From: a virus
Taxonomy: Duplodnaviria > Heunggongvirae > Uroviricota > Caudoviricetes
Length of the DNA: 64,000 nucleotides
Direction: 5' to 3' (one strand)
IMG/VR virus record: IMGVR_UViG_3300032665_000003
The notes under the pieces: model-generated
Database searches by the model: none
Told to the model about the DNA's origin: nothing
What the model saw: only the letters and a program-made list of their open reading frames with translations
Shown here: positions 3,664-58,308 of the stretch, in pieces
Numbering within the stretch: the stretch's first letter is position 1
Layout of the letters: every line of letters begins with the position of its first letter
Program-made: the position numbers and the translations under genes

Positions 3664-4524
3664 ATGGATTGGGTAAAATACGGGTTTGGACCAGACTATC
3701 TACCACATGACCCAAAGCTACCGTTTTATATTAACTACAACAATGCTATTCCAACTACTGACAAAACACCATTAGAAATATCTAAAGAGGCCATTGAACG
3801 TATATCTAGTAAGTACCCTGCACCTTATACCTTGATGTGCAGCGGCGGTGTAGATAGTCAAGCGATGATTTTAGCCTGGAAGCACAGCGGTGTACCTTTC
3901 AGAATCGTTTCAGCTAGATACAATGACAATATGAATGATTATGATTTAGTTGAGTTAAATGCATTAGCAGAACGTGAGGGGCTTTCGGTCGACTACCTAG
4001 ACATCGATGTTATTGATTTTCATGAAAATCATTTACAAGAATGGGCTAAGACTTATAACTGCACCACACCACACATTCTCACACACATGTATATTGCAAG
4101 CAAGATTACCGAAGGTACTGTCGTGTCTAGCGGAAATTATGTTTTATCTATCGGAAAATTCGGAGCGATCAATTATGGACAATTTGGGTTGCAGAGATAT
4201 TCTGAGATTTCCAAACAACCGATGGTTCCTTATTTTTGGATGCACGACCAATATCTGATGCCGGTTTTTGAGATTATACGTCGGCAGCAAGGAATTGAAT
4301 ATGAACAATTAGAGAAAGACGGATATCACTATAAATGTCTATTATTTCAATTGGCCGGGTTTGACGTTATACCGCAACCTCGTAAATATAATGGATTCGA
4401 AAAACTAAAAGAACATTACGATTCGGTTACGCTTAAATATACTGATATCCTAAAGGCTGCTAAAAACCGAAAAGACAGCAGAGATGCTCTTGTCTGCTAT
4501 AATATCTTCCTTAACTTCAGTTAA
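3664..4524 (+). CDS. PP-loop (SGGxDS) ATP-pyrophosphatase superfamily protein; function unknown (QueC-, MnmA- or TilS-like fold)
   Basis: Motif LMCSGGVDSQAMI. Divergent paralogue of the 4600..5580 protein. Confidence 0.5.
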   Translation: MDWVKYGFGPDYLPHDPKLPFYINYNNAIPTTDKTPLEISKEAIERISSKYPAPYTLMCSGGVDSQAMILAWKHSGVPFRIVSARYNDNMNDYDLVELNALAEREGLSVDYLDIDVIDFHENHLQEWAKTYNCTTPHILTHMYIASKITEGTVVSSGNYVLSIGKFGAINYGQFGLQRYSEISKQPMVPYFWMHDQYLMPVFEIIRRQQGIEYEQLEKDGYHYKCLLFQLAGFDVIPQPRKYNGFEKLKEHYDSVTLKYTDILKAAKNRKDSRDALVCYNIFLNFS

Positions 4525-10492: not shown

Positions 10493-10933
10493 TTACTCGG
10501 ATTCAGGAATAGGAAGATCAACCAGATCATGTTCACGATCCAAATATTTCATGTCGATATGAACTGGATCCATGATCTTAAGCGATTCAACAACGTCATA
10601 TGGATCGAGCGGCCCGCACGTATAAACGTCGAGTTGTACCATTGCCGGGCTCTGTTCATCCCAGATATGCATGACAATATGACTGGTCTCAATAATAGTG
10701 GCAGCGGTCAATCCGCGATTACCTTCCATATCACTATAAACAGCATAGGGTCCCATGAGAATTTTCATACCAATACGGTCAATAAGAGCAGGCATCCACT
10801 CTTTAGATACCTTCTCAGGACAAACCATTGGTTTATTGACTTCTGCACGGACGATCAAATGCTTGTGAAATAGGGCCAACTTCTTATTACCTTTCTTAAT
10901 ATCATATTTATTTAAATGAAAAAGCCGCAGCAT
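10493..10933 (-). CDS. speD: S-adenosylmethionine decarboxylase proenzyme (pyruvoyl-dependent, SpeD/SpeH-like)
   Basis: Motif LTAATIIETSHIVMHIWDE..VDVYTCG, with an E-S self-cleavage site typical of bacterial AdoMetDC. The start is trimmed to the Met downstream of tRNA-Val. Confidence 0.55.
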   Translation of the reverse strand: MLRLFHLNKYDIKKGNKKLALFHKHLIVRAEVNKPMVCPEKVSKEWMPALIDRIGMKILMGPYAVYSDMEGNRGLTAATIIETSHIVMHIWDEQSPAMVQLDVYTCGPLDPYDVVESLKIMDPVHIDMKYLDREHDLVDLPIPESE

Positions 10934-10960
10934 TTTCCTGTATGCGCGGCTTCTTCTAAA

Positions 10961-11036
10961 TGGTAGGCCCTGACAGGATCGAACTGCCGACATTCTGCGT
11001 GTAAAGCAGACGCTCTCCCAGCTGAGCTAAGGGCCC
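10961..11036 (-). tRNA. tRNA-Val (TAC)
   Basis: Canonical cloverleaf GGGCCCT..AGGGCCT; anticodon arm TCTGC-TTTACAC-GCAGA. Confidence 0.8.
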
Positions 11037-11260: not shown

Positions 11261-11336
11261 TGGTGGAGACAACAGGACTCGAACCCGCCACCTACTGGAT
11301 GCAAACCAGTCGCTCTACCAGATGAGCTATGTCCCC
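11261..11336 (-). tRNA. tRNA-Ala (TGC)
   Basis: Anticodon arm ACTGG-TTTGCAT-CCAGT; GGGGACA acceptor; CCA encoded. Confidence 0.8.
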
Positions 11337-15157: not shown

Positions 15158-15232
15158 TGGTGCCTAGAACAGGATTGAACTGCCGGCCTTCGCTTTACGA
15201 AAGCGCTGCTATACCAATTCCGCCACCTAGGC
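15158..15232 (-). tRNA. tRNA with anticodon loop TTCGTAA (CGT, Thr-like); the anticodon stem is atypical
   Basis: Acceptor GCCTAGG, T-arm GGCAG-TTCAATC-CTGTT, CCA encoded. The anticodon arm GCGCT-TTCGTAA-AGCGA has a G.A closing pair. Confidence 0.6.
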
Positions 15233-16253: not shown

Positions 16254-16493
16254 ATATTTCTTTAATTTTATCATAACAGATATAAAAAAATTGTCAACCG
16301 GGTTTTTTATTTTCTTTATGGTTGCGACGAGTTAGACCTTTTCTATATCCTATAGGAATTTCGTCCAATGGCGAAATTGATTTGTTAATCACTCCGTTAG
16401 TTATTCTGACTTTGTTTTTAGAGGCTAATGATCTTTTTCTGTTGGCTTCTTGGTGTTCAACTGAATCCGTATTTTTTGGTTTACCTTTATTCG

Positions 16494-16931
16494 CTAACCC
16501 GCCTTTTTAGCTCTTTCTCGCATGGCGTTCGTATAGGAACTATATTCTTCCTCCGTCATTCTGCTGACGTACTCTAAATAAGCTTTTTTGGCCAGAAGAC
16601 TGCGTTCTTCTACTGTTGTTTTTTCTATCCTTGCCAGAGCGCCCTTAAGGGCGCTCTCTTTGGTAAACCCTCCCACTCCGCCCAATCTCATATTATAATT
16701 TGAATGTTCGTTAAAGTTTTCGGTTAGCTTTCGTTCTAAATCATATGCTTCCGTTCGGGTTTCGGATATTAAAAGAATTTCCTTTCGAAAATTTTCTTTT
16801 CCATATTTTGAAATTGCGTTTTTTATTGCAGTTCCGCTCCCGTAATACGAATCCATTGGCTTGTTGGTCTTATGAACTCCTATATAGGTTTTGCTGTTAA
16901 CCAAATTAGTAATTCTATAAACAGTATACAT
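16494..16931 (-). CDS. GIY-YIG homing endonuclease
   Basis: MYTVYRITNLVNSKTYIGVH ... YYGSG. Confidence 0.7.
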   Translation of the reverse strand: MYTVYRITNLVNSKTYIGVHKTNKPMDSYYGSGTAIKNAISKYGKENFRKEILLISETRTEAYDLERKLTENFNEHSNYNMRLGGVGGFTKESALKGALARIEKTTVEERSLLAKKAYLEYVSRMTEEEYSSYTNAMRERAKKAG

Positions 16932-16986
16932 GCGAAATTTTCTCCGAATGTATTTAACATGTCGCAACCTAAACACTTAGATTTTT

Positions 16987-17061
16987 TGGTGCCCCATGAC
17001 AGAATCGAACTGCCGACCTTCGCTTTACGAAAGCGCTGCTATACCTCTTAGCTAATAGGGC
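16987..17061 (-). tRNA. tRNA with anticodon loop TTCGTAA (CGT), paralogue of 15158..15232
   Basis: Identical anticodon arm and a different acceptor (GCCCTAT/ATGGGGC); T-arm GGCAG-TTCGATT-CTGTC; CCA encoded. Confidence 0.6.
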
Positions 17062-17062
17062 G

Positions 17063-17446
17063 TTAGTTATTTACTGTGTTGTCGCCGTGAAACTGTCCGT
17101 ATATACAATGGATAAATTCGTGACCAACAAACTCTGGTTGGTAAGTCACGCTAGGATCCATCATGTGAATTGTGCATGTATCATAACTAGGAGGTTGCAG
17201 CAGGCTAAATGCTACTACGTTAGTAGAATTTACTTTATGATCTGATGCCGTAGTACTCTTATTGAGATACCCTGCTACTACTCGGTTTAATTCCGAAGGT
17301 GATTTATATGTAACTATCTTAATCGTAACTTCGTGCTTCTCGTACTGCTTTTGTTTAAAAGTATAACCATCAGCGCCAACTTGTGAACTTGAATTTGGCG
17401 TACATGCTGCTAACGCAAGCACAGCGATGCATAGTAATTTTTTCAT
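17063..17446 (-). CDS. lipoprotein with an HExxH motif (HEFIHCIYGQFHG); possible small zinc metallopeptidase
   Basis: Signal peptide plus lipobox LAACT; HEFIH motif. Confidence 0.45.
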   Translation of the reverse strand: MKKLLCIAVLALAACTPNSSSQVGADGYTFKQKQYEKHEVTIKIVTYKSPSELNRVVAGYLNKSTTASDHKVNSTNVVAFSLLQPPSYDTCTIHMMDPSVTYQPEFVGHEFIHCIYGQFHGDNTVNN

Positions 17447-18292: not shown

Positions 18293-18431
18293 ATAAAACT
18301 TACTGGGGTTCCTCATTTTTAGAGACCGTCACCCCCTTAAAAGCTTACTAATAGCAGTATTGTGCTGCCTAGTTTCTCCTCAACCGTATATCTCATTCTG
18401 CAGGGCTTGCAATAATCACCTACAGTAAAAA

Positions 18432-18483
18432 TGGTGTCTCCCGGCGACTTGACGCCTTTAGCACGCTATGAACCTGAGGAGAC
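18432..18483 (-). ncRNA. tRNA-like minihelix: a 7-bp acceptor stem (GTCTCCT/GGGAGAC), a T-arm-like hairpin (GGCG-TCAAGT-CGCC) and 3' ACCA, with no D or anticodon arms
   Basis: Folded by hand. Resembles a tRNA top half or a tmRNA TLD fragment. 52 nt. Confidence 0.25.
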
Positions 18484-18609
18484 ATAAATGGTGTTGCCCT
18501 TCGGTAATGATCCGAAACCTCGAGATTTTCGGTCTCGCGTGCAGACCATCTACACTAGAGCAACATGAATTCTGCGGACTTACGGTGTTCTTCACCCGCC
18601 GAGTTATTT

Positions 18610-18680
18610 TGGTGGAGACGGAGGGAATCGAACCCTCCCTGCTGAACTGCCAGCCCGGCGTTAAGCCCACTTACGTCCCC
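18610..18680 (-). ncRNA. non-canonical short tRNA-like gene (about 68 nt plus CCA); the anticodon region is unclear
   Basis: Acceptor GGGGACG/CGTCTCC, perfect T-arm GGAGGG-TTCGATT-CCCTCC, A discriminator, encoded CCA. The central region does not give a standard D/anticodon fold. Confidence 0.35.
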
Positions 18681-18755
18681 ATAATCTCTCGGGTAGCTGC
18701 ACACTACCCTTCCTCGTCAGAACCATTGTGCAGGGTACCAACGAGAGTATCCTCT

Positions 18756-19139
18756 CTACATGAATAGCTTCAAGGCTTTCAAATCTTCACCGATCAAGTC
18801 TTCTCGAATAGGACCGAGTCCTAAACAAGTAACAGTCGGTTCGTTGAATACCGTGAACCCAGCGTCTTTAACTAACGAGACACCGCATACATTCTTGTAT
18901 GCCTCTTGAATCACTTCTAGTTCGGCTACCGTGTCAACAATAAGAGTGATCTTATACGCATGATCACTGTTCTTGTACTGGATTGCTTGAAGATTGCAGT
19001 CCGAAGAAACCTCAAGACTAACTGCATTCCAATAAGCATGAAGGTATGCGTGACCTGCCATAGAAGCAAGCTTTCCGCGATTACCTTTCATCTTGTCTAC
19101 GCTTTCTTTAGCGAAGATGCAGTACATTTTCAGTTTCAT
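18756..19139 (-). CDS. pth2: peptidyl-tRNA hydrolase, PTH2 family (start trimmed to MKLKM)
   Basis: N-terminal KMYCIFAKESVDKMKGNRGKLASMAGHAYLHAY resembles the PTH2 signature KMvlvvRtDLkMgKGKiAAQ.sHAa. Confidence 0.5.
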   Translation of the reverse strand: MKLKMYCIFAKESVDKMKGNRGKLASMAGHAYLHAYWNAVSLEVSSDCNLQAIQYKNSDHAYKITLIVDTVAELEVIQEAYKNVCGVSLVKDAGFTVFNEPTVTCLGLGPIREDLIGEDLKALKLFM

Positions 19140-19340: not shown

Positions 19341-19429
19341 TGGTCAGGGTAGCAGGATTCGAACCTGCGTGAACGATTCCGCCTCTCGTTTCCAAAACGA
19401 GCGCTCCGACCTGGCTGAGCTATACCCTG
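19341..19429 (-). tRNA. tRNA with anticodon TGG (Pro-like) but an unusually long variable region of about 16 nt
   Basis: Perfect acceptor CAGGGTA/TACCCTG; anticodon arm CTCGT-TTTGGAA-ACGAG; variable region AGGCGGAATCGTTCAC; T-arm GCAGG-TTCGAAT-CCTGC. Confidence 0.5.
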
Positions 19430-19583
19430 ATAATTTGGCCGTCAGGAAATTTTCTCTCCGGCAGTCACTAGTAAACTGCTACCGCTGCGGGACCTGACGA
19501 TAAACTGTCGCCCCTACTCTATCTTTCTCTCGATTACTTTCGGTGTTGGATACCAAACATACGTGATAGGGGCATAAACTTAT

Positions 19584-19671
19584 GGCGGAGCGTTAGAGAT
19601 TCGAACTCTATACCCGTAAGGTACCTTTCGCTTTCCAAGCGAAGACAGATCCTATCTGCTTACCCACTCCG
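19584..19671 (-). tRNA. tRNA-Ser (GGA), type II
   Basis: Anticodon arm TTCGC-TTGGAAA-GCGAA; long variable arm; T-arm TAGAG-TTCGAAT-CTCTA; CCA encoded. Confidence 0.65.
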
Positions 19672-19756
19672 TATTATGGTGGCCCTCAATCCTAATTATA
19701 TAATCACCTAAGTGAGTTGATAGTCGGGGCATAAACTTTGGTGTGCAATGCGCAAT

Positions 19757-19835
19757 TTGGTGGGTCTAATTGGAATCGAACCCACGTCTGCTGCTTTGGA
19801 GACAGCGGTACTACTATTGTACGAAGTGCGCATGA
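19757..19835 (-). pseudogene. tRNA-like sequence (anticodon arm GCTGT-CTCCAAA-GCAGC would give CCA/Trp); the acceptor stem does not pair
   Basis: Good D-arm (GTAC-AATAGTA-GTAC), anticodon arm and T-loop GGGTTCGATTCC, but 5'/3' acceptor complementarity is absent. Flanked by more tRNA-like debris at 19680-19940. Confidence 0.25.
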
Positions 19836-19953
19836 TAAAGTCGTATTGGCTAGCGGAATCAAACCGCTTTTGGGGCACCCAAGTCCTATAGAGACGATTC
19901 GAACGTCACACCCTTTCCCACCAAGGAAAACCACCTAGGACCAATACTATAAA

Positions 19954-20030
19954 TGGCGCAATCAGAGGGATTCGAACCCCCAACCCTCAGATTCGTAGTC
20001 TGATGCTCTCATCCGTTGAGCTATGACTGC
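19954..20030 (-). tRNA. tRNA-Arg (ACG)
   Basis: Anticodon arm TCAGA-CTACGAA-TCTGA; T-arm GGGGG-TTCGAAT-CCCTC; CCA encoded. Confidence 0.75.
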
Positions 20031-20207: not shown

Positions 20208-20696
20208 CTTATTTTTGTACCGGTGCGTTCGACCATTTCCCCTGTTTTTTCCTTTAAAGGAATCAGTTTGACTATGACAGTTTGGACAAAGCAACCTTAA
20301 ATTATCTATATGATTGTTATTAGGATTACCATCTGAATGATCACATTCTAGTGTGATTGGGAGATCGTTCCATTGCTCTAATTTACACCACTGACATTTG
20401 GCTCCATGCAACGCTATTAAAGTTCGGCGCGCCCATGCCGGAAAACCCATGCTATCAAATGCACCGGTTATCAACCAATTTTTAATTTTTTCAGCAGACT
20501 GGTATTCTGCTTGACATTTATTAGAACAAAACTTTTGCTTGACGCCACATTGTTTCTCGCATTTCAAACACGAAGGTATATTTGTTCGGGCTCTACCTCT
20601 ACTAATAGAGTATCTTCCGCCTTCCCGATGAACACTTTTATGTCCATTCAATTGACGGAACGTTTCAAACTCTTTACCGCAGTGACATACGTGCAT
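20199..20696 (-). CDS. HNH homing endonuclease
   Basis: CDHSDGNPNNNHIDNLRLLCPNCH, plus an N-terminal C2H2-like zinc finger (HVCHCGKEF). Confidence 0.7.
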   Translation of the reverse strand: MHVCHCGKEFETFRQLNGHKSVHREGGRYSISRGRARTNIPSCLKCEKQCGVKQKFCSNKCQAEYQSAEKIKNWLITGAFDSMGFPAWARRTLIALHGAKCQWCKLEQWNDLPITLECDHSDGNPNNNHIDNLRLLCPNCHSQTDSFKGKNRGNGRTHRYKNKPT

Positions 20697-20767
20697 AAGC
20701 TTTGTCCTAGCTCAGTTATTTATGCCTATTAATAGGTATGTTGTATGAGCTAACACGGCATATAATT

Positions 20768-20840
20768 TGGCTGTCCCCCAAGGACTCGAACCTCGATAAT
20801 CCGCACCAAAAACGGATGTCTTACCATTAGACGAAGGGAC
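20768..20840 (-). tRNA. tRNA-Gln (TTG); the anticodon stem/loop boundary is ambiguous (9-nt loop, or a 6-bp stem with a G.T pair)
   Basis: TGTCCCT acceptor; D-arm TCTA-ATGGTA-AGA; anticodon region ATCCGTTTTTGGTGCGGAT; T-loop TTCGAGT; CCA encoded. Confidence 0.6.
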
Positions 20841-20947
20841 AATAATACTTGATATTTATATACGAATACTATGATTATAAGAAAACACATTGACGTGTTG
20901 CTTCAACGAGGTTCGTAGCCCAGTGACTGTGTTTAAGTCCTATGTTT

Positions 20948-23558: not shown

Positions 23559-24455
23559 TCAATTGCGGGTTAACCCGTTTAACTTGAAGTTAACAAATCC
23601 TACGATGTGGTCTGCTACATTTATATTGCAATATCGTTCGAAGCCCTCAAAGCCTGGAGCTGAGTTTGCTTCACAAACTTTAAATCCGTTTTCATCAAAC
23701 AAGAGGTCTATCCCTGCAATTTGCAATCCGCAAACTCTAGCAGTCTCTCTCGCAATGTATTCAATTTCGTCGGTGACCTCAAATGTTTCACCGTGACCAC
23801 CATTTGAAATATTAGCACGGAAGTCACCGACTGGAGCAATACGTTTCATTGCCCCAATCACCTTGCCGCCCACAACAAACACTCTGAGGTCTTCACCTGG
23901 GCGGTGTCCTACGTATTCTTGTACTATTAAGGTTTTTGCACTTTTTAGACTATCAGTGAAGTCCATAAGCTTTTTGAAATCTTTTTTTCTTTCACATAGA
24001 TATACACCTTCACCATAGCTTCCACTAATCACTTTTACTATGCAAGGCCAACCAATATTTCTATCTACAATATCAACTTCAACTGGAAACCTAACTAGCA
24101 TCGTATTTGGAATTGGAATTCCATTGCTCACTAGTAATTGTGATGTTCTAAGTTTATCTTTAGCAATCTCAATTCCCTCAGAGGAATTTACACAAGGTGT
24201 TCCTTCTTCTTCAAACTGTCTGATCAAAGCCCTTGCAAACTCATTTGTACCTGATCCAGTTCTAGTCAACAAAAGTTTGGGTTTCTCAAGGGTCAATCCA
24301 TTGTAATTTATACCAGTTTCTATACCTTGCCTAACAACTAAATCAAAGTTTTCTGGATTGGCAAACTGTACGTTTATACCTTGGTTGGCAAAACTTTCTA
24401 GGAGACGAGCATTCTCATAATCCTTTTCTCTTTTGGTCAAAATTACTACAGACAT
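23559..24455 (-). CDS. rimK: RimK-like ATP-grasp ligase (alpha-L-glutamate ligase / glutathione-synthetase fold)
   Basis: MSVVILTKREKD ... VVKVISGSYGEGVYL ... LIVQEYV ... GAMKRIA ... CGLQIAGIDLLFDENGFKVCEANSAPGFEG is a typical RimK motif set. Start trimmed to MSVVIL. Confidence 0.6.
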   Translation of the reverse strand: MSVVILTKREKDYENARLLESFANQGINVQFANPENFDLVVRQGIETGINYNGLTLEKPKLLLTRTGSGTNEFARALIRQFEEEGTPCVNSSEGIEIAKDKLRTSQLLVSNGIPIPNTMLVRFPVEVDIVDRNIGWPCIVKVISGSYGEGVYLCERKKDFKKLMDFTDSLKSAKTLIVQEYVGHRPGEDLRVFVVGGKVIGAMKRIAPVGDFRANISNGGHGETFEVTDEIEYIARETARVCGLQIAGIDLLFDENGFKVCEANSAPGFEGFERYCNINVADHIVGFVNFKLNGLTRN

Positions 24456-24672
24456 ACTGAATCTTTCATACTGTGTATATTTATGACATTTCATATTTCA
24501 TATTTCATATTTCACGTCGTATTTAAGAATAAGATAACAAATTAGAGGATGATCATTAGTCATAAATTCAATGTTGTACCCATCAAACTTTTTTTGATAC
24601 GGCAGGTGTTTGATTCCCGATTCTCGTATTGCCTTATTAATTTGATGGAAAACCTAGGTTGGTACGAAAATT

Positions 24673-25921: not shown

Positions 25922-25975
25922 GTGGCGGGCCCGACAGGATTTGAACCTGCAATCTTGAGCTTTAGAGACTCTTGT
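25922..25975 (-). pseudogene. tRNA 3'-half fragment (T-arm GCAGG-TTCAAAT-CCTGT, acceptor CGGGCCC, discriminator G, CCA) with no matching 5' half
   Basis: The 5' portion has no acceptor complementarity and no anticodon arm. Confidence 0.4.
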
Positions 25976-26049
25976 GAAACCATTCAGCCTCAGGCGCGCA
26001 TAACTCTTATGTAACGAATAATACGATAATATACGCTGAATGTCAAGCC

Positions 26050-57663: not shown

Positions 57664-58308
57664 TTAAGTAGTTCCACCGATACCTGTTACAGAACCAGTT
57701 GTACCTGATAGTGGGCGGACTACAGGTGTTCCAACACCAGAACCAAGCGGAGACTGAATTGCGTTGTCGAAACGAATAGTAAGTGCGATAGTTACCGGTT
57801 CATTTGTTCCGTAGTTCAATGTGTTGTAGTTTACAGTTTGAACGAAGCAACCATAAAGCTCCCAGGTCTCAAGAACTTGCGGAGTAGCAGTACCGTTACC
57901 ACCATCGAGAATTTCGATGTTAGTTTGGAACTTGTAGTCTTGACCGGTAGCCGCAGATGCTTGTTCAACAAAGTCCATTTGCTTTTGCACTTGTTGACCT
58001 ACTGCCTTAGAAACACTGCCTGAAGCGTCATCACGAATGTTGATCGAGATTGTTTGCCACTGATGCTTGCCAGCTAGATATAGGGTTGAGTTATATACTG
58101 GAAGAGTGATTTCTTGAAACGTAACGTTTGGACGAGAGCAATCTACTACTTGCTTAGTCAAACTCAGTCCTGCTGTTGACCCAACCCCGAAGTTCAAGAA
58201 ATTGACACGAAATCTGAACTGTAGTTTAGGCATCAACAGGCCTTGATTGCCACCAGCATTATCAGACGCTACGGTCATATTGAACAATGATTGTGAGGCT
58301 GTTGCCAT
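57664..58308 (-). CDS. tail tube protein (T4 gp19-like)
   Basis: Length and position after the sheath; a spaced conservation pattern like gp19 (..KLQFRFRVNF.., ..WELYGCFVQTVNYNTLNYG..EPVTIALTIRFDNA). Confidence 0.55.
   Translation of the reverse strand: MATASQSLFNMTVASDNAGGNQGLLMPKLQFRFRVNFLNFGVGSTAGLSLTKQVVDCSRPNVTFQEITLPVYNSTLYLAGKHQWQTISINIRDDASGSVSKAVGQQVQKQMDFVEQASAATGQDYKFQTNIEILDGGNGTATPQVLETWELYGCFVQTVNYNTLNYGTNEPVTIALTIRFDNAIQSPLGSGVGTPVVRPLSGTTGSVTGIGGTT

Follow-up and report, generated by a model that had tools for sequence, protein, structure and literature searches.

What is encoded by a gene that resembles a tRNA at both of its ends and not in between, and is such a gene a relic or a working component of the phage that carries it? 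The question is raised by IMGVR_UViG_3300032665_000003, an IMG/VR record of a tailed phage (Caudoviricetes), of which a stretch of 64,000 nucleotides, here called the window, was analysed. Between the gene for a PTH2 peptidyl-tRNA hydrolase and that for tRNA-Leu(UAG), this window contains three co-oriented RNA genes that form part of a long tRNA array of the phage. They specify a tRNA mimic of 71 nt, a tRNA-Phe(GAA) of deviant form and a minihelix of 52 nt. Read 5' to 3' on the minus strand, the order is PTH2, a 75-nt leader, the 71-nt element (18680-18610), a 45-nt spacer, tRNA-Phe(GAA) (18564-18489), 5 nt, the minihelix (18483-18432), a 139-nt spacer and tRNA-Leu(UAG). The PTH2 gene lies directly upstream of the RNA genes on the same strand, and belongs to their context rather than to the RNAs themselves. 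The explanation we prefer overall, to which we give about an even chance of being right, is that the 71-nt gene specifies a functional, non-decoding derivative or mimic of tRNA-Ala, and that the minihelix is a shortened, lineage-specific gene. A first-pass annotation, made from the sequence alone, had described both elements and missed the tRNA-Phe(GAA) between them.

The 71-nt element has the following parts.

18610..18680, minus strand: 71-nt alanine-identity tRNA mimic without an anticodon (ARAGORN, Rfam, RNAalifold and pair comparison)
18674-18680 with 18614-18620, minus strand: its acceptor stem, including G3·U70
18667-18673, minus strand: its single-stranded D-loop analogue, UAAGUGG
18641-18666, minus strand: its bulged hairpin, RNA positions 15-40
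18621-18637, minus strand: its T arm, preceded by the linker AGG
18610-18613, minus strand: its ACCA

The acceptor stem of seven base pairs (GGGGACG/CGUCUCC), initially described as perfect, contains a G3·U70 wobble, while the remainder of that description, a perfect T arm (GAGGG-UUCGAUU-CCCUC, of canonical form), an A discriminator (A73) and an encoded CCA, is accurate. G3:U70 within a 7-bp acceptor helix, together with A73, is the signature of an alanine acceptor, and G3·U70, A73 and CCA are invariant in all three distinct sequences of the element that were compared (see below). The canonical cloverleaf is absent: there is no D stem and no anticodon arm with a 5-bp stem, a 7-nt loop and U33, and one bulged hairpin stands in for both arms. 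Automatic calls reflect this mixture of features. ARAGORN labels the element tRNA-Ala(ggc), with the anticodon at position 30, and in a scan of the whole window the Rfam tRNA matches that reach the gathering score (RF00005, 29 bits) do not include it. Its best match within the Rfam clan is instead transfer-messenger RNA (tmRNA), at 36.7 bits and thus below the gathering score of 47, in an alignment that covers both ends and deletes the whole interior.

Is the element under selection, or is it a decaying tRNA gene, as had been suggested beside a tRNA-derived small RNA, a decoy and a substrate for neighbouring enzymes? The structural evidence comes from three distinct sequences in two lineages, namely the window, the strain variant L038/L039 and contig L040. 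On closely related contigs the element is 100% identical. The L038/L039 variant, assembled independently from two samples, is 98.8% identical over the 581-nt region studied here and 99.4% over a 1,990-nt aligned block, with a PTH2 protein that is 99% identical; L040 represents the nearest distinct lineage (PTH2 75% identical), in which the homologous block consists of the leader and the 71-nt element. Among the neighbourhoods of PTH2 homologues surveyed in IMG/VR and by ten contig look-ups, only L038/L039 and L040 carry the mimic, and the remaining PTH2 relatives (at most 73% identical) have other genes on the downstream side of PTH2. Searches with models R1 and R3 brought no additional members, and exact-pattern scans with the interior of the mimic gave only chance matches to coding DNA in IMG/VR, none in GTDB genomes, and the identical contig alone in one JGI metagenome scan. 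Neither the region nor the surrounding 10 kb has relatives among GenBank phages by blastn and megablast.

The window and L040 copies differ at 10 of 71 positions, and eight of these differences form four double compensatory pair changes in the acceptor and T stems (C6-G62 to U-A, G7-C61 to A-U, G44-C60 to A-U and A45-U59 to G-C). The other two are A19G, which keeps its pair as G·U, and U8C, which is unpaired; G3·U70 is retained. All 21 proposed pairs are standard in each of the three sequences, as against 39-57% when the pairing is slid by 1-3 columns, and the 36 interior nucleotides (positions 8-43) have changed twice against about six changes expected at the 17.5% divergence of the aligned block (P ~0.05). 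Because eight of the ten L040 substitutions are compensatory, no pair is broken and the interior is nearly invariant, the comparison indicates that the element is maintained by selection and is neither a pseudogene nor a gene in decay.

The consensus structure given by RNAalifold consists of the acceptor stem, a hairpin spanning positions 15-40 and the T arm. The hairpin pairs G15-C40, C16-G39, U17-A38, A19-U36, A20-U35, C21-G34, G22-C32, C23-G31 and C24-G30, with A33 bulged, and it is this structure that had made the anticodon region undecipherable at first sight; RNAalifold and the fold energies agree that an anticodon arm is lacking. The alternative, that the gene encodes a tRNA-Ala(GGC) which still decodes although it is non-canonical and its D arm is reduced, follows the ARAGORN annotation, which is the same in the window and in L040; moreover, a GGC anticodon would agree with the alanine identity conferred by G3:U70, and the putative loop CUGGCAG has U33 and A37. 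The arm that this requires (stem 23-27/35-39) nevertheless contains one mismatch and two G·U pairs, does not appear in the RNAalifold consensus and yields a fold of -14.4 kcal/mol compared with -26.9 kcal/mol for the hairpin fold, a cost of about 12 kcal/mol, in a molecule without a D stem and below the Rfam tRNA gathering score. In L038/L039, furthermore, three changes in the mimic (G26U, U29C and deletion of A33) abolish the CUGGCAG loop, with loss of U33 and one loop base, and the ARAGORN tRNA call disappears, while the rest of the element is kept; with the same changes the bulge disappears and a closing G-C pair is gained, which makes the hairpin the minimum free energy (MFE) fold. The hairpin in the consensus, the energetic penalty of the anticodon arm and the loss of its loop in L038/L039 together imply that the "GGC anticodon" is an artefact of a forced cloverleaf, and we regard a decoding function as very improbable. 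The structure supports an RNA predicted to be unable to decode, having no usable anticodon, in accord with the initial suggestion of a tRNA-derived, non-decoding small RNA. If the ARAGORN label were counted as a decoding tRNA-Ala(GGC), it would distort arguments about the codon usage and the tRNA complement of the phage.

From what, then, is the element derived? The identical PTH2 protein occurs on 24 lake-metagenome contigs of up to 0.2-1 Mb, and its more distant relatives (at most 75% identity) are found on contigs of 300-580 kb, which places the phage in a jumbo-phage lineage. Related jumbo phages possess a 74-nt tRNA-Ala(UGC), GGGGACGUAAGCUAACGGGAAACUGGCGCCUUUGCAAGGCGCACUUGAGGGUUCGAUUCCCUCCGUCUCCACCA, with which the 71-nt element shares its first 11 nt (GGGGACGUAAG) and its last 28 nt without a difference. 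In those phages this gene occupies a slot in the conserved run Asn-Thr-Arg-Ala-Pro-Val-Trp-Leu, and in the window the same slot (11261-11336) is held by a different, canonical tRNA-Ala(UGC). Given the identical ends, and a slot held by another tRNA-Ala, the 71-nt element is most readily understood as a copy of this clade's tRNA-Ala that has been moved and remodelled. It shares with that tRNA-Ala(UGC) the G3:U70 pair, A73, the CCA and an identical acceptor/T-arm stack, and differs in having no D stem, no anticodon arm of 5 bp and 7 nt and no usable anticodon. Alanine-accepting minihelices are reportedly charged by alanyl-tRNA synthetase (AlaRS) through G3:U70, in work by Hou and Schimmel and by Francklyn and Schimmel; those were engineered substrates, whereas the 71-nt element is a natural gene.

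An acceptor/T-arm stack of alanine identity is also a property of tmRNA, and the tmRNA match raises the question of whether the element belongs to that family. One phage-encoded tmRNA reduced to its tRNA-like domain (TLD-only) is on record, that of mycobacteriophage DS6A (PMC4131195, PMC11915505), and DS6A alone is named in the searchable literature on phage TLD-only mini-tmRNAs. The same two papers, citing Mao et al. 2009, report inhibition of E. coli tmRNA by a TLD-only RNA, which perhaps titrates SmpB. The DS6A gene (JN698994: 28478-28560) likewise gives a sub-threshold Rfam tmRNA match, of 43.2 bits, while a 73-nt RNA on a 185-kb IMG/VR contig (L003:1418-1490) reaches 65.4 bits. A pattern scan of IMG/VR yielded at least 119 contigs, with at least 68 distinct TLD-only sequences of 66-89 nt and no tag frame, none of which ARAGORN recognises as tmRNA; this suggests that TLD-only mini-tmRNAs are common in uncultivated phages. 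Their anatomy comprises G3:U70, a tmRNA-type D loop, one capped helix with G·A/A·G at its base, GGAC, the T arm and ACCA. An alignment of 24 of them contains 117 double-sided changes, a value attained in 0 of 500 shuffles, and all 24 share without exception the helix base G·A, A·G, C-G (GAC/GGA) and the GGAC ahead of the T arm. The loci are L063-L180 and L003:1418-1490, with L134:3830-3895, L088:298-363 and L112:5131-5214 as examples.

The 71-nt element resembles DS6A and the IMG/VR class in being phage-encoded, in falling within the range of 66-89 nt, in its G3:U70, A73 and canonical T arm, in possessing an unpaired D-loop analogue and a single capped helix in place of an anticodon arm, in lacking a tag frame and in being invisible to ARAGORN as tmRNA. 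It departs from them at the core that defines the class. Where the class has GAC/GGA and GGAC, the element has AAC/GUU (GAC/GUU in L040) and CAGCAGG, so that the invariant G·A/A·G + C-G helix base is lacking, A-U/A-U pairs (with G·U in L040) replacing its tandem G·A/A·G, and a 3' linker of 7 nt stands where the class has a single base. The scores with the R2 class model agree with this difference.

Held-out TLD-only RNAs: L003 69.7 bits, DS6A 54.1 bits, L140 48.3 bits
71-nt element: window 41.2 bits, L038 42.4 bits, L040 37.5 bits
Ordinary phage tRNA-Ala genes with the same stems: 38.5-45.7 bits

The element thus scores no better than ordinary tRNA-Ala. The proposal that it is nevertheless a true TLD-only mini-tmRNA, descended from tmRNA and able to bind SmpB, either titrating it or entering stalled ribosomes, could invoke the best Rfam match, which is to tmRNA at both ends, the layout common to DS6A, L003 and the IMG/VR class, and a D loop, UGGGCUUAAC, which agrees with the tmRNA consensus uGGaUUCGAC at 7 of 10 positions; in addition, the TLD-only variant L140 has GUUAAC in place of the G·A pairs. 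Against this stand the sub-threshold Rfam score, the R2 score equal to that of the tRNA-Ala controls, the replaced core, and the identity of both ends with the tRNA-Ala of the clade. The lack of the G·A/A·G and GGAC core and the tRNA-Ala-like R2 score make SmpB binding doubtful, and the identical ends argue for convergence rather than for membership in the TLD-only class. We consider descent from tmRNA quite unlikely. In sequence and predicted fold, the element shares the TLD-only architecture in outline, departs from its defining core and is not filed here as a tmRNA relative; it is read instead as a convergent derivative of tRNA-Ala. By kind it stands with the TLD-only or tRNA-like phage RNAs, and the variant itself is new. 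A permuted, two-piece tmRNA was also considered and rejected: the tmRNA_permuted match is weak (22.7 bits) and confined to the T arm and CCA, and the 5' acceptor strand lies upstream, in standard order. The tmRNAs without coding sequence of organelles, known from jakobid mitochondria and, in forms of about 65 bp, from Mallomonadaceae plastids (PMC11915505), likewise consist of a tRNA-like domain alone, without a tag frame and presumed to be charged with alanine; they differ from the 71-nt element in that homology reveals their descent from tmRNA and SmpB occurs alongside them. As a separate observation, a small IMG/VR contig encodes an SmpB homologue (L084:359-814; 42% identical to an approximate E. 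coli SmpB query) about 300 nt from a TLD-type pattern match (L084:1111-1197), and could represent either a phage pair of smpB and mini-tmRNA or a bacterial fragment.

How might a non-decoding tRNA-Ala mimic act? Known tRNA biology suggests that RNase P and 3' trimming would release the 71-nt RNA from a poly-tRNA precursor, as for its neighbours. AlaRS requires only an acceptor helix with G3:U70 and A73, and for this reason the RNA is predicted to be charged with alanine by the host enzyme; EF-Tu could then bind its acceptor/T-arm stack, and the RNA would not be selectable on a codon. By analogy, it may engage machinery that reads only the acceptor/T-arm half of alanine tRNA or tmRNA, a tentative proposal with a chance well short of even, and it would then be a functional analogue, by convergence, of the phage TLD-only mini-tmRNAs, with interference in host ribosome rescue, or a tag-less version of it, as the outcome. 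The PTH2 hydrolase would be a plausible partner, clearing peptidyl or N-blocked products; its gene lies upstream on the same strand both in the window and in L040, where a further RNA intervenes. Among the roles envisaged, we place competition with, or participation in, ribosome rescue first, as possible at a similarly modest level, a decoy at the acceptor end second, at about half that likelihood, and an alanine donor for non-ribosomal transfer, which is unsupported, third.

Several results weigh against this reading and its leading role. Ribosome rescue fits the wide occurrence of TLD-only RNAs and the upstream PTH2, but is weakened by the missing SmpB-type core and by class-model scores no better than those of tRNA-Ala, and no SmpB gene is found in the 64-kb window, which is part of the genome (tblastn with an approximate E. 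coli SmpB query, best E = 5.3). The adjacency of PTH2 is seen in two lineages only and may be incidental in so dense an array. The covariation values are reached by 7 of 500 shuffles, thin statistics from three sequences in two lineages, and the single-sequence MFE fold of the window copy departs from the consensus fold (-29.8 versus -26.9 kcal/mol).

The second role takes in both elements, which could be decoys for host immunity proteins or toxins, tail-cleaving nucleases for example, whose targets are the acceptor stem, T arm and CCA tail of tRNAs, and so spare the real tRNAs. Both RNAs keep an acceptor stem, a T-type hairpin and ACCA, and little besides. There is precedent on each side of such an interaction: phage tRNAs evolve against tRNA-targeting defences (PMC10264068), and Cas12a3 reads precisely these parts of a tRNA, with truncated tRNAs among those that it cleaves (PMC12851939). 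The pattern of strain differences is also suggestive, since seven of the 11 differences in the 1,990-nt block are concentrated in the 147 nt that make up the mimic and tRNA-Phe (binomial P ~3e-6), three in the hairpin loop of the mimic and four in tRNA-Phe, and so resemble a hot spot. This cluster, however, may stem either from selection acting at a hot spot or from a single small patch of recombination, and a generic tail decoy would need neither G3:U70 nor a conserved interior. As an explanation of both elements the decoy is, in our estimate, unlikely. Rather more probable, though still improbable, is a wider scheme in which giant phages deploy a toolkit of aminoacylatable, non-decoding mimics of the top half of tRNA, among them the 71-nt RNA, which would have evolved from tRNA-Ala towards the layout of the tmRNA tRNA-like domain independently of the widespread but unannotated TLD-only RNAs, and which, perhaps jointly with the adjacent PTH2 hydrolase, would hijack or block ribosome rescue or absorb host effectors that attack the acceptor ends of tRNAs; were it true, the variation at the hot spot between near-identical strains would be the trace of an arms race. 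More generally, tRNA look-alikes of this sort are, by analogy, probably tools for tampering with host translation or defence, and selection that keeps a non-decoding mimic of alanine identity would add to the evidence that phage tRNA clusters also encode RNAs which manipulate these machineries.

The smaller element poses a different problem.

18432..18483, minus strand: 52-nt minihelix with a 7-bp acceptor-like stem, a 20-nt linker, a 4-bp hairpin with the 6-nt loop UCAAGU, and ACCA

Its sequence, GUCUCCU-CAGGUUCAUAGCGUGCUAAA-GGCG-UCAAGU-CGCC-GGGAGAC-ACCA, bears out the description first given of it, a minus-strand element with a 7-bp stem, a T-arm-like hairpin and ACCA and without D or anticodon arms, so that it is no canonical tRNA. 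The acceptor stem has six Watson-Crick pairs and U7·G, and its third pair is C3-G70, hence it is not of the alanine type; the T-like arm, which directly abuts the 3' acceptor strand, has 4 bp and a 6-nt loop, where a canonical T arm would have 5 bp and 7 nt. Rfam and ARAGORN both pass over the minihelix. Its folding z-score is -2.18, with nine of 200 shuffles folding as well, and a structural scan for a 7-bp stem, an adjacent hairpin of 4-5 bp and NCCA within 40-66 nt picks up two instances in the window, where shuffles would give 0.28 on average; the one that is not the minihelix (57680-57733, plus strand) is in coding DNA. Because the minihelix starts 5 nt after a tRNA and on the tRNA strand, a chance origin is unlikely, and we put this at about 1e-3 to 1e-2.

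All copies of the minihelix are identical, including that in the 99% variant strain, and they come from near-identical strains only. No homologue was found in about 380 kb of related tRNA regions with a model of its own, nor in IMG/VR by pattern scan, and L040 and the other relatives are without it. What occupies the same position in relatives is of interest. Behind tRNA-Phe(GAA) they have longer, non-canonical tRNA-like RNAs (82 nt in L056/L057; also L040:4472-4574 and L015), which have in common with the minihelix G1-C72, U2-A71 and an NCCA end, and in L056/L057 also C3-G70. The alignment is otherwise poor, and the minihelix model matches nothing at these loci. The non-canonical tRNA-like RNAs without an ARAGORN call are L056:4829-4909, L057:699-779, L040:4472-4574, L015:243-341 and L015:946-1065, and all of these except L015:243-341 directly follow tRNA-Phe(GAA); the 82-nt RNA has an 8-bp stem and an 11-nt loop, with compensatory changes between L056 and L057.

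The minihelix may be an abbreviated form, peculiar to its lineage, of the non-canonical tRNA-like gene found behind tRNA-Phe in relatives. A competing account, whose probability falls just short of even, makes it a non-functional remnant of a tRNA or tRNA-like gene that has lost its central part by deletion. Consistent with this are its confinement to one tight cluster of strains and the lack of a homologue in relatives, the degenerate T-like arm of 4 bp with a loop, UCAAGU, one base short of UUCAAGU, the full-length tRNA-like genes at this position in relatives, and the instability of the array, in which several indels of tRNA and homing-endonuclease genes distinguish the strains. On the other hand, acceptor stem, stacked hairpin and ACCA end have all been preserved, and the spacing after tRNA-Phe is that of a normal array member; the zero differences across 52 nt between strains carry little weight at 99.4% identity. 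The identical copies are as compatible with function as with recent decay. As a shortened gene it could still be processed, and it would be either a working minimal substrate for RNase P, the CCA enzyme or EF-Tu, or a decoy target, or else the remnant of a recent deletion. A tag-like reading frame in the linker (GCG UGC UAA) was dismissed as too short. Small non-tRNA RNAs within a phage tRNA array have a possible classical counterpart in the stable species 1 and 2 RNAs (rnaC, rnaD) of the T4 tRNA cluster, which are matured together with the tRNAs and are longer than the elements of the window. A tRNA pseudogene has been reported in the array of the jumbo phage XacN1 (PMC5852040). The likeness lies in a jumbo-phage tRNA array containing a gene not recognised as a standard tRNA; the 71-nt element differs in its compensatory evolution, whereas the minihelix may be such a pseudogene.

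Do the two elements share any signal? The first-pass annotation saw the motif ACACCATTT recurring after both, but its copies (18429-18437 and 18486-18494) lie at the 3' ends of the minihelix and of tRNA-Phe(GAA), and the 71-nt element ends in CUCCACCAAAAU. As a shared signal the motif is not significant, since a 9-mer occurs twice or more in 16 of 100 shuffles. On the minus strand, neither element has a site that resembles a terminator or a promoter, and a reading of the minihelix and spacers as intrinsic terminator or promoter was accordingly set aside. Apart from generic T-loop matches, the 30 tRNAs of the window show no likeness to either element.

The remaining features of the interval are as follows.

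18756..19139, minus strand: PTH2 peptidyl-tRNA hydrolase gene, 127 aa (Pfam PF01981, E = 1.4e-14)
18681..18755, minus strand: structured leader that separates the 71-nt element from the PTH2 stop codon (two-lineage comparison, folds)
18740-18745 with 18713-18718, minus strand: leader hairpin 1
18704-18709 with 18691-18696, minus strand: leader hairpin 2
18565..18609, minus strand: spacer with the conserved motif CUCGGCGGGUG...CACCGUAAGUCCGCAGAAUU (blastn, 89% to L040:1264-1309)
18489..18564, minus strand: tRNA-Phe(GAA) (ARAGORN; Rfam tRNA 46.3 bits)

The leader is conserved together with the 71-nt element in L040 (914-982). The seven nucleotides that form the loop of hairpin 2 (UGUGCAG, 18697-18703) are fully complementary to a stretch inside the loop of hairpin 1 (CUGCACA, 18727-18733), and in the resulting model of two hairpins and a loop-loop helix all 19 of 19 pairs are standard in both lineages, with three double compensatory changes; a single long hairpin, which has two broken pairs and no compensation, was rejected. 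Comparison of these two lineages is suggestive of a pseudoknot or kissing-loop element, which could guide processing, be an independent small RNA or form the 3' end of the PTH2 mRNA. The tRNA-Phe(GAA) is real but deviant, with C33 in place of the near-universal U33 and an unusual T loop, AUCAUUA. Its L038 counterpart differs at four sites, including position 33 and two T-stem pairs, and has U33 and two A·C mismatches in the T stem. The spacer motif, CUCGGCGGGUG-loop-CACCGUAAGUCCGCAGAAUU, may be a processing or promoter signal. The window has a single copy, ahead of tRNA-Phe, and L040 has two (1264-1309 and 4230-4275), ahead of other tRNA or tRNA-like genes. L040 contains further unusual RNAs: one of about 205 nt with tRNA-like ends (700-907; T arm CCGGG-UUCAACU-CCCGG, ...AGAGGGA-A-CCA), and two G3:U70 RNAs without an ARAGORN call (1058-1138 and 1401-1473), one of them with a UGC anticodon loop.

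By ARAGORN's count the tRNA genes of the window number 30. Every one lies on the minus strand, the CCA is encoded in nearly all, and they are interspersed with genes for HNH, GIY-YIG and NUMOD3 homing endonucleases and with a PP-loop (TilS-like) gene and the PTH2 gene. The array gains and loses cassettes between strains. Window segments 19366-19967, 20282-20917 and 16384-17375 are absent from the strain variant L038, and with them the tRNA or tRNA-like genes Ser(gga), a partial tRNA of 54 nt (19769-19822), a 'Ser(cga)' without CCA (19843-19935), Gln(ttg) and Thr(cgt), as well as homing-endonuclease genes (HNH, GIY-YIG). The gene that ARAGORN calls tRNA-Phe(aaa) (15158-15232, minus strand) has the same anticodon arm, with the loop UUCGUAA, as tRNA-Thr(cgt) at 16987-17061, and is probably a mis-assigned tRNA-Thr(CGU) paralogue. 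Outside the main array, 25926-25997 (minus strand) matches Rfam tRNA at 34.6 bits without an ARAGORN call or an encoded CCA, and overlaps open reading frames. Finally, a gene for a RimK-like ATP-grasp ligase (23559-24494) and one for an S-adenosylmethionine decarboxylase-like protein (10493-10993), both on the minus strand, lie within or beside the tRNA array.

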